Part shown: piece after piece, positions 295 through 63,350 of the stretch
Layout: each line of letters opens with the position of its first letter
Numbering within the stretch: position 1 is the stretch's first letter
Assembly (NCBI GenBank): GCA_903921785.1
Contig: CAIXRH010000055.1
Span: forward strand, 4,717-68,716
Length of the DNA stretch: 64,000 bases
Direction: 5' to 3'
Origin: an uncultured Pseudomonadota bacterium
GTDB taxonomy: Bacteria; Myxococcota_A; UBA796; SXON01
Position numbers and translations under genes: made by a program
Notes under the pieces: generated by a model
Database searches by the model: none
What the model was told of the DNA's origin: nothing
What the model saw: the letters and a program-made list of their open reading frames with translations, nothing else

Positions 295-1020
295 ATGCTC
301 ACCCCCTTCGCCCTGCTCCTCGGGTCCGCGCTCGCCGCCGAGCCGACCATCGAGGAGCTCCTCGCCGCCACCGACGACGTGGCCCGCGGCACCTCAAGCG
401 ACGCGGTCATGGAGATGCACGTCAAGACCGCCAACTACGAACGCACGATGAAGATGCACGCCTGGTCCTCCGGGAAGGACAAGACGCTCATCCGCATCCT
501 CGAGCCCGCCAAGGACGCCGGCATCGCCACCCTCAAGGTGGACGACAACATCTGGAACTACCTGCCGAAGGTGGACCGCACGATGAAGGTGCCGGCCGGG
601 ATGATGTCCGGGAACTGGATGGGCAGCCACCTCACCAACGACGACCTGGTGAAGGAGAGCCGCCTGTCGGAGGACTTCACCTACACGCTGACGAGCCGGC
701 CCAAGGAGAACCCGGAGGGCCTCTATGTGATCACCCTGGTGCCGAAGCCCGAGGCGCCGGTGGTGTGGGGGAGCATCGTGGCGAAGATCCGCCCGGACAA
801 GCTCCCGGTCTCCATCGCGTACAACGACGAGAAGGGCAAGGCCGTGCGCACGATGACCTTCGCCGACTTCAAGTCAATGGACGGCCGCATGGTCCCGGGC
901 ACCATGACCATCCTCCCGGCGGACAAGCCGGGCGAGTTCACGTCCATGACCTACGTCTCCATCGACTTCGACGTGAAGCTGCCCGACAGCACCTTCACCC
1001 TGCAGGCCCTGAAGCCCTGA
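295..1020 (+). CDS. Outer membrane lipoprotein-sorting protein (LolA-like family)
   Basis: Signal peptide; LIRILEPAKDAGIATL, IWNYLPKVDRTMKV, WMGSHLTNDDL motifs typical of the family; follows a LolD-like ATPase. Confidence 0.8.
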   Translation: MLTPFALLLGSALAAEPTIEELLAATDDVARGTSSDAVMEMHVKTANYERTMKMHAWSSGKDKTLIRILEPAKDAGIATLKVDDNIWNYLPKVDRTMKVPAGMMSGNWMGSHLTNDDLVKESRLSEDFTYTLTSRPKENPEGLYVITLVPKPEAPVVWGSIVAKIRPDKLPVSIAYNDEKGKAVRTMTFADFKSMDGRMVPGTMTILPADKPGEFTSMTYVSIDFDVKLPDSTFTLQALKP

Positions 1021-1021
1021 G

Positions 1022-59896: not shown

Positions 59897-62283
59897 CGAA
59901 CCCCCGGGGGCACCGCGATGGTCTTGCCGCTGGGATCCGTGGCGTTGACAGGGAAGGTCGCGGCGGCGGTCGTCATGGTGATCGGGGTACCGGCGCGCCA
60001 GTCGGCCGCCCACGGGAGGATGCCGTAGTCGGGCCAGGTGGTCTCGACTCCCAGGGCCTCCGCCACGGCGCGGCTGACCCCGCGCACCGCCGGGCGGCCG
60101 GTGAGCCGCCCGGTGGGCACTCCGTTACCCCACGCCACGAACAGCGCGATCGGGTGATGCACCATCGAGGTCTCGATGCCGTGATCGGACATGACGATGA
60201 GCATGTCGTCGCCGTCCAGCGCGCGCGTGAGGTCGCCGAGGCGGGCGTCGATGTAGCGGTACACCGAGAACAGGCGCACGTGGCCGTCGTCCTGGCGCGC
60301 CTCGGTGGTGGCGGCGAACCCCGCGTGGGTGAGCGGATCGAGGCCCTCCACGCGGAAGAAGATGTTGTCGGCGTCCTTTCCGCTCATCAGCGCCGCGATG
60401 GTGTCGAACTGCGCGGCCATCGTCTGCATCGAGTCGCGCACCTCCTGGTACTCGCCCGTCGGGCCGAACTCGGGGAACGCCGCGACCTCCGCCTCGGTGA
60501 GCGGACGCAGGCTCCGACCGAGCGGGAGCACCGAGTGCGCGCCCTGCGGCCCCGCGACCTCGGCGTTTCGCCCCGCGTCGATGTTTCCGTGGCTGAACAG
60601 GAGATTGGCCGACCGGAGATCACCCATGCCGAGCGTGTCGAACAACCCGCGCTGCGCCGGGAGGAAGAACGCGAGCGGCTCGAACGGGTTCTTGCCGATG
60701 GACGAGAGCCCGCCCAGCTCGATGCCGAGCTGGTGCACCCGGTCGATCACGGTGGCGCTGGTGCGCGGCACCGGATGGGTGAGGGCGTCCATCGCCGCGG
60801 CGGTGTACGCCGGCAATTGGAACGGCGCGGCGCGCCATCCGGTGCGGAGTAGCGCGTCGAAGTTCGGCAGCTCCCCGCGCTGACGAAGGTAGCTGGTGAT
60901 CCGCCAGTCGCCGCAGTCGAGGATCACCACCCACACCCGACGGTGACCGTCCGCCGGGCGGCCGGGCGTGAGGGGCGGCTGGGGCTGCCGCGGCGTGGGG
61001 TGCGTGATGTCGATCCCGATGTCGACGTTGTTCCCCGGCGCGGGCCACGTGGTCCCCGAGCCGTAGGTGGTCGTCTCCGTGCGGTAGACCCAGCGCACCG
61101 GCGTGGCGTCCAGCCCGCGGGGCAGCTCGGCGCGCCCGTCGGGCATCGCCACGCGAGTCCACGCGGACTCGGGGGCGCTGCCGCGGTCGGGGGACACCCA
61201 GAGCTCCGCGCCCTCCGGTGGCGCCGCCACCGAGAAGCGGAGCGTGCCGCCCCCGTTCGCGCGCTCCCCGGACTGCAACGTCGCCATCCTTGAGAGCTCC
61301 CCCTCGTGCGGATCGAAGCCCGGAACACGCCGCTTGGCCTCGTCGGCGTACTTCAGGGCGAGGGCGGCATCCCCATCCAGGGCGAGCTGTCCCAACAGGC
61401 GCATGTAGGCGGTGCCCAGCAGGCGCTGGTGGCTCTCGGCGCCAGGGGTCGCCACCGCTTCTTCGAGGAGCACCGTCCAGGACTTGTCGGGGTCGAGGAC
61501 GGAGGCGATGCTCAACGCCGTGGCGTACCCGCACGCCACGACGCCGGGGTTGCCGCCCGCGGCCAACCAAACGTCGCGGGACTCCCGGGTGCGGCCGAGG
61601 TCCCCGGAGAGCGCAGCCGCCGTAACCCGGGCGTAGAACCACTCGTCCCGCTCGTCCGGCTGGGTCGGGGGAGCGCCCTCGGCGTAGAGCGTGTACTCCG
61701 TGGCGATGTCTCCGCGGCGGTGCGCGCTGTCGGCGAGCGCCTGGCGAGCGGCCACCTGGGAGGCGGGGGGCAGCGAGGGGAGCTGCGCCTTCAGGTCGGT
61801 GAACACCCGGGATTCGTCTCCCGCGGCGAGCTGGATCGAGAACGCCCGGAAGGTCCAGGCGGGGTCGCCAGGGTCCTTCTGGTGGCGGCGATCCGCGACG
61901 ACCGCCACGTCGCTCATCCGGCCCTGGCTCTGCGCGTGGACCATCCACGGCGCCAGACGGACGTCCTCCGGCAGCCAGGTCTCGGCGCCGGGGCGCATGA
62001 GCCAATCGTCGAGCAGCGCGTGGCACGACTGGGGCTGCCCCGTGGCCTCGAGCGCGTCGCAGCGACAGCTGACGGCGCCGAGCAGCGCTTCGTCCGCGTG
62101 GCCGGACTTGGGCAGGGCGTCGGACGCGGCGATGGCCGCGGCCCAGTCGCCCCCGGCGCTCGCCGTGCAGGTGTCAAGCGCCGCGAGCGCGTGGTGGGTC
62201 GGCTCGACGGCGCGCCAGATCGCGGCGACCGCCACCACCATGAGCACGCCGGCGAGCAGCACCCTCTTTCGTTCCCCGGTCAT
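59893..62283 (-). CDS. Membrane-anchored protein with helical N-region and C-terminal alkaline-phosphatase-superfamily domain
   Basis: VVILDCGDW, PAYTAAA (Thr nucleophile position), DPLTH, VMSDHG, HHP; ATGA overlap with the upstream gene. Confidence 0.7.
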   Translation of the reverse strand: MTGERKRVLLAGVLMVVAVAAIWRAVEPTHHALAALDTCTASAGGDWAAAIAASDALPKSGHADEALLGAVSCRCDALEATGQPQSCHALLDDWLMRPGAETWLPEDVRLAPWMVHAQSQGRMSDVAVVADRRHQKDPGDPAWTFRAFSIQLAAGDESRVFTDLKAQLPSLPPASQVAARQALADSAHRRGDIATEYTLYAEGAPPTQPDERDEWFYARVTAAALSGDLGRTRESRDVWLAAGGNPGVVACGYATALSIASVLDPDKSWTVLLEEAVATPGAESHQRLLGTAYMRLLGQLALDGDAALALKYADEAKRRVPGFDPHEGELSRMATLQSGERANGGGTLRFSVAAPPEGAELWVSPDRGSAPESAWTRVAMPDGRAELPRGLDATPVRWVYRTETTTYGSGTTWPAPGNNVDIGIDITHPTPRQPQPPLTPGRPADGHRRVWVVILDCGDWRITSYLRQRGELPNFDALLRTGWRAAPFQLPAYTAAAMDALTHPVPRTSATVIDRVHQLGIELGGLSSIGKNPFEPLAFFLPAQRGLFDTLGMGDLRSANLLFSHGNIDAGRNAEVAGPQGAHSVLPLGRSLRPLTEAEVAAFPEFGPTGEYQEVRDSMQTMAAQFDTIAALMSGKDADNIFFRVEGLDPLTHAGFAATTEARQDDGHVRLFSVYRYIDARLGDLTRALDGDDMLIVMSDHGIETSMVHHPIALFVAWGNGVPTGRLTGRPAVRGVSRAVAEALGVETTWPDYGILPWAADWRAGTPITMTTAAATFPVNATDPSGKTIAVPPGVR

Positions 62284-63350
62284 GGCGCGCACCCGCGGGT
62301 CGAGTCGCCTTCGAGCACCAGCTGTTCCCCTCCGTTGTCGCGCAGCGCGAGCTCGAGCCGCCCCAGCGGATACCGGATCGGGGCCACCAGGGTGGACCTC
62401 GGCGCGGATGCAGCCAGCACGGCGTCGGACTCCGCGAGTCGCTCAAGGTCGAGCGCGACGCCGTTCGGGGCCGACTCACGCCCGGATACGGCCGCCGCGA
62501 GCTCCACCGCCGACTGGTTCCACCCGATCGCGAGCTTGTCCCCCTCCCGGAGGTAGCAGGGCTCAAAGTCGGGCATCAGCCGCAGCCCGCTCACACACTC
62601 GCCCTTCCACGCACCGGCCGAGATCGGCTTGCGGTGGATGCTCCATTGCGAGCGGACCTGCTCCATGAACGTGTCCAACGCGGCGTCCACGGTGAGGGTG
62701 CGCACCCCCAGGCCGAGCACCGGCCGCGGCATCGTTCCCCCTTCGGCGGGCGGGTACACCGCGAGCTCCCAGGTGCCGTCGAGCACCGCGCTCCCGAGCA
62801 GCGCGCTGTTGAGGCCGAAGAGCTTGGCGCCCTGGCTGTCGGGGGGGATCATCGGGGCGATGTCGATGCCCTCCGCCGTGCGCATCCGGACGTGCATGGC
62901 CGCGTGCGTGTCGGAGAGGATGGCCGACTCCCGCGGGGACGCGTCGGGCACGAGCAGGCGGAGGAAGCTGCCCTTCGCGGGCATCGGCGCGCGCACCTCC
63001 ACGTGCAGCCCGCCCCCCGGACGGGCCGTGACCCGACCAAAGACCTGCCCGTCGGCGCCGGGTGGCGTGGCGAACGCCACGAGCGCGTCGCCTCTCCAGG
63101 CGGCCACCGCCGACGACGGTTCGGCGCACGCGGCCTCGCCGGGGCCGTCTGCGCCCCACGCCGACGTGCGGCTGCCCGCGCACGGGGAAGCGCTCCACTC
63201 GGCGGCCAGCTTCTCCGCCTCGCTCTCGGGGAAGCCGGCGAGGCACTGCGCCAACGAGCCGTGGGCGCCATCGACCACCAGGAAGCCTTCCGGCGGCGGC
63301 GCGTCGGTCTCCACCGCCGGCGAACACGCGAACAGCAGGGTCAACAGCAT
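62280..63350 (-). CDS. Hypothetical lipoprotein
   Basis: MLLTLLFA-C; TAGGGT 8 nt upstream; coupled to the next gene. Confidence 0.6.
   Translation of the reverse strand: MLLTLLFACSPAVETDAPPPEGFLVVDGAHGSLAQCLAGFPESEAEKLAAEWSASPCAGSRTSAWGADGPGEAACAEPSSAVAAWRGDALVAFATPPGADGQVFGRVTARPGGGLHVEVRAPMPAKGSFLRLLVPDASPRESAILSDTHAAMHVRMRTAEGIDIAPMIPPDSQGAKLFGLNSALLGSAVLDGTWELAVYPPAEGGTMPRPVLGLGVRTLTVDAALDTFMEQVRSQWSIHRKPISAGAWKGECVSGLRLMPDFEPCYLREGDKLAIGWNQSAVELAAAVSGRESAPNGVALDLERLAESDAVLAASAPRSTLVAPIRYPLGRLELALRDNGGEQLVLEGDSTRGCAP

Follow-up and report, generated by a model that had tools for sequence, protein, structure and literature searches.

Genes for predicted exported proteins that begin with ultra-short leaders lacking a basic n-region were analyzed in a 64-kb stretch of DNA (the window; C55:4717-68716) from an uncultured member of the Myxococcota. 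These leaders are probably true N-termini that represent a lineage-wide class of minimal Sec-type signals, composed of a hydrophobic stretch (h-region) and a cleavage box, through which the proteins would be exported, cleaved, and lipidated. An earlier note on this DNA had proposed a minimal signal class for the lineage. As far as sequence goes, this was supported by the translation starts, the genome-wide occurrence of the leaders, their presence in related metagenome-assembled genomes (MAGs), the envelope domains of the mature proteins, and the machinery genes. The window belongs to a MAG of 7.48 Mb in 362 contigs with a G+C content of 71.5%. Genes were called with a home-made codon log-odds caller trained on long open reading frames (ORFs) with high G+C at the third codon position (GC3), which gave 6,169 genes and a coding density of 90% with standard stop codons.

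Short uncharged leaders in the window and in the genome

All 14 N-termini reported for the window were present, six of them on the minus strand (27808, 36073, 41685, 47508, 48757, and 63350; each gene is denoted here by the position of its start). In the ten lipoprotein candidates, the lipobox Cys was at residue 9-14 and no Lys or Arg preceded it (10/10); nine of the ten leaders were firmly free of Lys and Arg, and the case of 27808 is weighed below. The lipoprotein leaders on the plus strand were MLALFFALG-C (7388..7417, gene 7388-8251), MLIFLALTG-C (20223..20280 with its upstream elements, gene 20251-21000), MFALLLLAASG-C of a MopE-repeat lipoprotein (21027..21074 with its upstream hexamer, gene 21039-22376), (GTG)M-MFLLLLAA-C (24785..24826 with its upstream hexamer, gene 24797-25363), and MLLLTASLSFAFG-C (37729..37770, gene 37729-38367). 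Those on the minus strand were MSALLLLLLVG-C of an 811-residue MopE-repeat lipoprotein (27773..27821 with its upstream hexamer), (GTG)MLSIVALIA-C (36044..36073, gene 35378-36073), MIVLLLLQAS-C of an M28/PA peptidase (41653..41685, gene 40222-41685; Peptidase_M28, 4e-27), (GTG)MLTLLLLA-C of an alpha/beta hydrolase (47482..47508, gene 46486-47508), and MLLTLLFA-C (63324..63350, gene 62280-63350).

The other four leaders were of the signal peptidase I (SPase I) type. Three were on the plus strand, namely MLTPFALLLGSALA of a LolA_like protein (295..336, gene 295-1020; 5e-46), MTPLLLVSFALA (1022..1057, gene 1022-2380), and MWLCVSFALA of a protein with PKD and Big_9 domains (18404..18433, gene 18404-18829). 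The fourth, MTVLLVLCALAYA, began a periplasmic binding protein on the minus strand (48719..48757, gene 47621-48757), in which the Peripla_BP_6 domain started from residue 17, directly after the 13-residue leader.

The whole genome was scanned for lipoboxes by checking each called ORF independently of its called start, with ATG, GTG, and TTG as the canonical starts. Among the 1,118 candidates, Lys or Arg before the Cys was impossible from any canonical start in 426 genes and unavoidable in 354; the other 338 were mixed, 193 of them being called with a Lys/Arg-free start and 122 with a Lys/Arg start. The Cys lay no more than 14 residues from the start in 411 of the 426 Lys/Arg-free genes (the short class), mostly at residue 8-11 and most commonly at residue 9. 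Over all proteins of the genome, the frequency of Cys by residue position was highest at residue 9, with 4.0% versus a baseline of 1.1%. In the short class the distance from Met1 to the Cys had a mode of 8 and a range of 6-13 (n = 411), while in the Lys/Arg class the distance from the last Lys or Arg to the Cys had a mode of 12, and the leaders therefore fall into two discrete classes. About 480 Lys/Arg-bearing leaders shared contigs with short leaders; in Lys/Arg leaders the Cys hardly ever came before residue 12, against the peak at 9 in uncharged ones. The expression ^M[hydrophobic]{4,10}[GAS]C was matched by 554 proteins, and by equally many with Ala or Leu replacing the Cys; a strongly hydrophobic hexamer at residue 1 was found in 667 proteins. 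The pattern is far above chance. By loose criteria, about 1,000 of the 6,169 genes (~17%) had a lipobox-type N-terminus, many of them encoding MopE-repeat, PKD, and Big_9 proteins; a lipoproteome of this size appears unusually large.

The lipoprotein leaders consisted of Met and 4-7 residues, mostly Leu, Phe, Ile, or Ala, fused to a hydrophobic lipobox (LLAC, LAAC, LLGC, LFAC). Position -1 was Ala in 70% and Gly in 27% of the short leaders, the choice of Ala, Gly, or Ser at this position being imposed by the filter, and position -3 was Leu in 66%; LLAC, LLGC, and LFAC were dominant. A relaxed lipobox, in which Leu, Phe, or Gly was also allowed at -2 and Phe, Met, or Ala at -3, accommodated 390 of the 411 short leaders. 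Uncharged leaders of the SPase I type numbered about 256 by a crude filter; they were 10-15 residues long, with a modal length of 11-12, and consisted of Met, about 6-8 hydrophobic residues, and an A-x-A site followed by Asp, Glu, or Pro, with no Lys/Arg n-region. Ala was found at -1 in 183 of them, where a small residue was required by the filter, and at -3 in 149; examples are MLLLLAASAFA (followed by DVAY) and MLILLATLAHA (followed by ADVT). The earlier note had described short leaders as running across the exported proteome. The minimal class itself was supported by the sequence, but its extent was overstated, because about 45% of the lipobox leaders of the same genome carry Lys or Arg.

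Position of the translation starts and comparison with relatives

As judged from the sequence, the called starts of these genes are the true N-termini. In-frame GC3 was 0.65-0.75 upstream of the starts, equal to the G+C at the first and second codon positions, and 0.91-0.97 from codon 1 on; this step persisted in the 135 genes in which the upstream frame was open for at least 15 codons. An in-frame stop codon lay no more than 3 codons upstream in 66 genes of the short class and no more than 10 codons upstream in 117. The start overlapped the stop codon of the called upstream gene by 4 nucleotides in 69 short-class genes (16.8%; genome average 13.4%), and in 49 others it lay 0-15 nucleotides past that stop codon.

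In the window, nine of the 14 genes had no ATG, GTG, or TTG back to the upstream in-frame stop, as the earlier note had claimed for most of them. The stop was 3 codons upstream at 1022, 18404, and 47508, 5 at 295, and 11 at 24797, while 15, 24, 30, and 62 open codons without a start preceded 7388, 36073, 63350, and 41685, respectively (overall range 3-62 codons). The start of gene 1022 was 1 nucleotide past the stop codon of gene 295-1020, and the GTGA at 24797 overlapped the stop of an upstream SDR gene. Alternative starts existed at 21039, 37729, and 48757 at distances of 39-85 codons upstream only, the nearest at 37729 being 42 codons away, and at 20251 an alternative GTG lay 11 codons upstream. 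GGAG was found at -9 of gene 295 and GAGG at -10 of gene 36073. The exact short starts of six of the ten proteins were also found in public gene calls (NCBI, ENA, JGI, and Logan assemblies); agreement was seen at 7388, 20251, 21039, 36073, 37729, and 63350. The 212-residue product of gene 37729, which our own caller missed, was called identically in all four sources, and the public calls for the binding protein at 48757 agreed as well.

The positions of putative -10 elements were also analyzed. Of 410 short-leader genes, 64 had the hexamer TANNNT at precisely -12, and so did 35 of 354 genes with Lys/Arg leaders and 307 of 6,103 genes in the genome as a whole. At other positions its counts were in single digits in both lipoprotein sets (about 1-5 near -12 in the short class) and about 10-60 genome-wide. 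This leaderless geometry was thus 2-3 times enriched among lipoprotein genes, and if the mRNAs are leaderless, as the position suggests, those of the genes concerned cannot encode an N-terminal extension. The earlier note had stated that a -10 element fixes the 5' end of several window genes. Such an element was present at 21039 (TATGGT, -12), 24797 (TACACT, -12), and 27808 (TACGGT, -13), and looser matches were seen at 37729 and 63350. In leaderless-mRNA-rich bacteria such as Deinococcus deserti, the -10 hexamer lies about 6 nucleotides upstream of the start codon (PMC4007540), and the same spacing was seen here genome-wide (307 genes). However, leaderless transcription was rejected as the cause of the short leaders, since only about 16% of them showed the -12 hexamer (versus 5% of all genes) and Lys/Arg leaders showed it too; the chief value of the geometry here is as separate evidence for the position of the 5' end.

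Relatives were collected by scanning GTDB species genomes with the Lgt of the window, which yielded 80 loci, every one from a MAG. At 20251, a TATACT -10 element (20223-20228) and a short 5' untranslated region (5'-UTR) with GGGAG preceded the start. The blocks TATACTCAC and GAGACAACGATG were invariant at all codon positions in six orthologues, and the spacer between them varied without codon periodicity, which indicates a conserved promoter and 5'-UTR and not coding sequence. The alternative GTG lies upstream of this block, and all six orthologues (6/6) had uncharged leaders of 10 residues. Upstream of this Big_9 lipoprotein gene (20180-20250), TATACTCAC (-28) and GAGACAACG (-9 to -1) were identical in six genomes, loci L003-L007 included, which otherwise differ at most of their synonymous sites.

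Orthologues of the 47508 hydrolase that adjoin lgt in L003, L004, L006-L011, L026, and L045 had uncharged leaders of 8-12 residues, including MLSLLLLAC, MLSLLALAC, MFALLLILSC, MFALVLILAC, MLVTLASLAAC, M-LLSLLPLLFAC, MTLLLLAAC, MIPLLWAC, and MILALLAC; those of L013 and L014 had leaders that contain Arg. The upstream DNA of the hydrolase genes was not conserved; in the window, L003, and L007 an in-frame stop came 3-4 codons before the start. Orthologues thus keep short leaders while the upstream DNA diverges and carries indels. Both the hydrolase and the 20251 orthologues retained short leaders across MAGs in which Lgt was 38-73% identical to that of the window. With the same pipeline, short lipobox starts were found in 24 of 327 genes in clades A, B, and E of the Lgt tree and in 3 of 246 genes in clades G and I and the outgroups Z (Fisher P = 5e-4). 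A clade with 45-48% G+C also has short leaders (MLLLLLWAC), so the trait is not a side effect of high G+C; it was seen as well on the metagenome contig L081 (72% G+C). Homologues of the 48757 binding protein in other bacteria start with MRRxxxLLLxxxAAC at the same place, and the nearest relative (52% identity) starts with MLLALLCTLARA.

Mature proteins and export machinery

Pfam analysis of the short-leader proteins of the window detected LolA_like, PKD, Big_9, MopE repeats, M28 with PA, the alpha/beta hydrolase fold, and Peripla_BP_6. Domains of this kind are typical of the cell envelope, and by this content the mature parts are predicted to be extracytoplasmic. The short and the Lys/Arg classes were alike behind the Cys. 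Residues +2 to +6 were Ala, Gly, Ser, or Thr and then Thr, Pro, or Ser in both, and the early mature region was acidic in both, with a net charge of about -2.5 over the first 20 residues. In addition, 161 paralogue pairs crossed between the classes. With the same residues, the same acidity, and class-crossing paralogues, both leader types appear to feed the same pathway. Two candidate explanations were rejected on these data, namely that a more acidic early mature region compensates for the missing charge, as the classes do not differ, and that the classes have separate destinations, as residues +2 to +6 are identical and many paralogue pairs cross between them.

Conventional leaders were present in the same window. 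They included the Lys/Arg-bearing lipoprotein leader MRGRYIALGGFVAVALTVLAAGLG-C of a protein with a Phosphodiest domain (3824..3898, minus strand), MTVRALVRPVSVLALGLLLG-C of a MopE-repeat lipoprotein from the same family as short-leader genes 21039 and 27808 (5558..5620, minus strand), and MPVYYRLASMLALLALAG-C of a MopE/PKD protein (55652..55708, plus strand), as well as MRGRYIALGG...LGC, MTVRALVRPVSVLALGLLLGC, and MPVYYRLASMLALLALAGC. MopE-repeat lipoproteins of the window thus carry both leader types. A Tat-like lipoprotein leader, MSHELETTGVDTGRRALLQGLLGLTALVATGC, was found at 8269-9327 (plus strand) alongside the minimal Sec-type leaders; the short leaders have no twin-arginine motif and no Arg at all. 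One more candidate leader with a GTG start, absent from the earlier list, was located at 59837..59881 (gene 59021-59881, minus strand). Short-leader gene 63350 is adjoined by a gene (63466-63906, minus strand) whose product resembles type IV pilins and carries the methylation motif at its N-terminus (Pfam N_methyl, 8e-10).

The genome encodes SecY, SecA, three S26 peptidases (SPase I), Fmt, and two copies of Def. For lipoprotein maturation it encodes two copies of LspA (Peptidase_A8), four members of the Lgt family (Pfam LGT), and two copies of Lnt (LNT_N and CN_hydrolase). The catalytic-Asp motifs GNxxDR and FNxAD were readable in both LspA copies, one of which is directly followed by the canonical Lgt (C221). 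The lgt gene of the window (44754..45692, plus strand; 312 residues; Pfam LGT, 4.5e-47) belongs to a long-insert subfamily. Its well-supported clade of 71 MAG sequences (including L001-L069) has an insert of 35-45 residues between the GCCHG and YPTQ(L/V)YE motifs, which is missing from the canonical Lgt of this genome and from the Lgt of Nitrospirota and Desulfobacterota.

The SecY protein (C16:8767-10125) was compared with that of E. coli. Five of the six pore-ring residues were kept, with I187->S in the ring, and F286->A, V411->N, and I413->S were also found. Position 187 was Ser in 110 of the 120 closest homologues (59-88% identity, all from 'Deltaproteobacteria/Myxococcota bacterium' MAGs) and Ala or Thr in the rest. 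Because Ser187 is near-universal among them, I187->S could not be linked to the trait, and a prl-like SecY was rejected as a candidate on this ground. V411->N was limited to the 15 closest homologues, and no link to the trait could be drawn for it either. In these 15, position 286 was Ala and position 411 was Asn; in E. coli the two positions, in transmembrane segments 7 and 10, lie near sites of prl mutations.

No compensating change in the machinery was found, with SecY and Lgt compared with homologues and LspA, Lnt, SPase I, Fmt, and Def identified in the genome. The long-insert Lgt was rejected as a dedicated enzyme since the insert also occurs in trait-poor clades, and absence of formylation or deformylation was rejected as a source of N-terminal charge since Fmt and two Def proteins are present.

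Outside the window, a gene divergent from and beside fmt (C142:3595-4911, plus strand) encodes a 438-residue membrane protein with no Pfam match. The protein has local similarity to residues 94-191 of the genome's own SecY (32% identity). Its few distant homologues have a Pfam SecY match on the N-terminal half and a C-terminal DUF2007, and one also has a SecDF P1-head; the family looks like a set of rare, undescribed 'half-SecY' proteins, as far as their domains suggest. An accessory channel of this kind was rejected as an explanation because the family also occurs on L086 (55% G+C) with ordinary MR/K leaders and is thus not tied to the short-leader trait.

Weighing of the explanations and relation to known signals

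If the short leaders are true Sec-type signals, ordinary targeting factors would bring the nascent N-terminus to SecYEG. The sole positive charge on the N-terminal side would be the alpha-amino group, free after deformylation by enzymes that the genome encodes (Fmt and two Def). An N-in/C-out hairpin may be favoured by the membrane potential and by the strong acidity of the early mature region. As 7-9 residues are too short for the bilayer, the uncharged N-terminus would probably sit in the lateral gate or the outer leaflet and not at the cytoplasmic face. A leader too short for the membrane may have to be uncharged to be buried whole, which would explain 'short' and 'uncharged' together. Lgt, LspA, and Lnt, or SPase I, would then process the protein as usual. 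A bolder form of this proposal can be put forward only tentatively and is itself doubtful. In this form, most of the envelope proteome in a large clade of uncultured Myxococcota would have lost the n-region; the leaders, of 7-9 residues before the Cys and 10-12 before the SPase I site, would be shorter than any other known Sec signal in nature, and would engage the translocon and Lgt/LspA differently, with the leader buried whole, maybe by way of SecY F286A/V411N or the duplicated Lgt, LspA, and Lnt.

Several points weigh against minimal Sec-type signals. The sole truly ambiguous case among the ten lipoproteins is 27808, where a GTG 3 codons upstream would give MKAMSALL..., a plausible start that contains Lys; this GTG overlaps the TACGGT hexamer at -13 and would therefore fall outside the transcript. 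The strict lipobox [LVI][ASTVI][GAS]C was found in 29% of the short leaders versus 47% of the Lys/Arg leaders, and with this low fit the specificity of LspA and Lgt may be broader here. The SPase I-type count includes cytoplasmic false positives such as adenylate kinase and HAD hydrolases, and all counts are estimates made with a home-made gene caller and home-made signal-peptide criteria. An h-region of 5-8 residues without positive charge is also said to be below what suffices in E. coli, according to work of Chou and Kendall in 1990 and of Hikita and Mizushima in 1992.

An origin of the leaders in annotation is close to refuted. It would place the true starts upstream, through non-canonical starts or recoded stops, or would take the bin for a mixture of two organisms, and it can draw on the 362 contigs of the MAG, the home-made caller, and the 338 lipobox genes that have both Lys/Arg-giving and Lys/Arg-free starts. 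However, the rise in GC3 coincides with the called start, 66 genes have an in-frame stop no further than 3 codons upstream, the stop codon of the preceding gene is overlapped by 69 starts, and the -10 hexamer stands at exactly -12. The upstream DNA of orthologues is unconserved and has indels, independent public gene calls agree, and coding density is 90% with standard stops. Both leader classes were found on 70 of the 78 contigs of at least 30 kb, which rules out a bin made of two organisms. It is improbable, too, that the N-termini are not cleaved Sec signals but uncleaved short anchors, or that the proteins follow another route, such as insertion with the N-terminus out or some other chemistry for lipidating the early Cys. 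In favour of this, a stretch of seven to nine residues is too short for the membrane, there is no n-region to fix the N-in orientation, and bulky residues at -2 (LLAC, LFAC) are atypical of LspA substrates. Nevertheless, Ala, Gly, or Ser at -1 and Leu at -3 are kept as strongly as in the Lys/Arg class, classical A-x-A sites, with Asp, Glu, or Pro after them, are present in the SPase I-type set, the large periplasmic and surface modules need a translocon, and paralogues switch between the leader classes.

Less improbable, though still unlikely in our judgement, is that the leaders, though real, depend on machinery adapted or dedicated to them, either a relaxed (prl-like) SecY or a duplicated maturation set specialised for short leaders, be it the second LspA beside the canonical Lgt, the long-insert Lgt, the second Lnt, or the extra S26 peptidases. 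The copy numbers of LspA, Lgt, Lnt, and S26 peptidases, the distinct subfamily of the window Lgt, the four SecY substitutions, with V411->N confined to the 15 closest homologues, and the two discrete classes of leader length all agree with such a requirement. The long-insert Lgt, however, also occurs in clades with almost only Lys/Arg leaders, I187->S is near-universal in the homologues compared, the mature-side features of the two classes are indistinguishable, and cultured myxobacteria often have paralogous maturation enzymes.

Minimal Sec-type signals of this kind depart from known systems in several respects. The PROSITE entry PS00013 has two additional rules, a Cys at position 15-35 and Lys or Arg within the first seven residues, and the short leaders break both. 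In E. coli the basic n-region is reportedly not strictly needed, and hydrophobicity can make up for its loss, as reported for the Lpp n-region charge mutants of Inouye and Vlasuk (1982-83) and of the poly-Leu signals of Chou and Kendall (1990) and Hikita and Mizushima (1992). Such engineered signals are said to be exported more slowly and to have an h-region of about nine or more residues; in contrast, the leaders found here are shorter and are a natural majority form in hundreds of genes.

According to reviews, Sec and lipoprotein signals are defined in part by a positively charged n-region (PMC9360617). Like canonical Sec/SPase II signals of the E. coli Lpp type (PS00013/PS51257; PMC9360617), the short leaders have a hydrophobic stretch and a lipobox with Ala, Gly, or Ser at -1 and Cys at +1, the Cys is followed by a flexible acidic linker rich in Pro, Thr, and Ser, and Lgt, LspA, and Lnt are encoded. 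Unlike these signals, they have no Lys/Arg n-region, their Cys lies at 8-11 compared with about 15-35, their h-region, of 4-7 residues, passes directly into the lipobox, and position -2 is often Leu or Phe. Myxococcus xanthus, of the same phylum, has the same Lgt/LspA/Lol logic and many lipoproteins; LipoP predicted 425 among its 7,331 proteins (5.8%), and the Cys of FibA is at residue 21 (Bhat et al., 2011; PMC3222651). In contrast to this 5.8%, about 17% of the N-termini had a lipobox here by criteria looser than those of LipoP, and over half of these were ultra-short. Full-text literature searches yielded no description of such leaders in nature, and ultra-short uncharged export signals appear to be undescribed in the literature searched.

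The tripartite n-h-c signal with a basic n-region is the textbook form, held to be near-universal and built into predictors and PROSITE rules. If about 10-14% of the genes of this clade use uncharged leaders of 8-13 residues, predictions may fall far short of the actual secretomes and lipoproteomes of these bacteria, which are abundant in fresh water and sediments. The hypothesis is directly testable by reporter fusions and metaproteomics. If it is true, short leaders could serve as compact secretion or lipid-anchoring tags for engineering, and the minimal needs of Sec targeting, orientation, and Lgt/LspA recognition could be studied where such signals occur naturally, with no need for crippled mutants.

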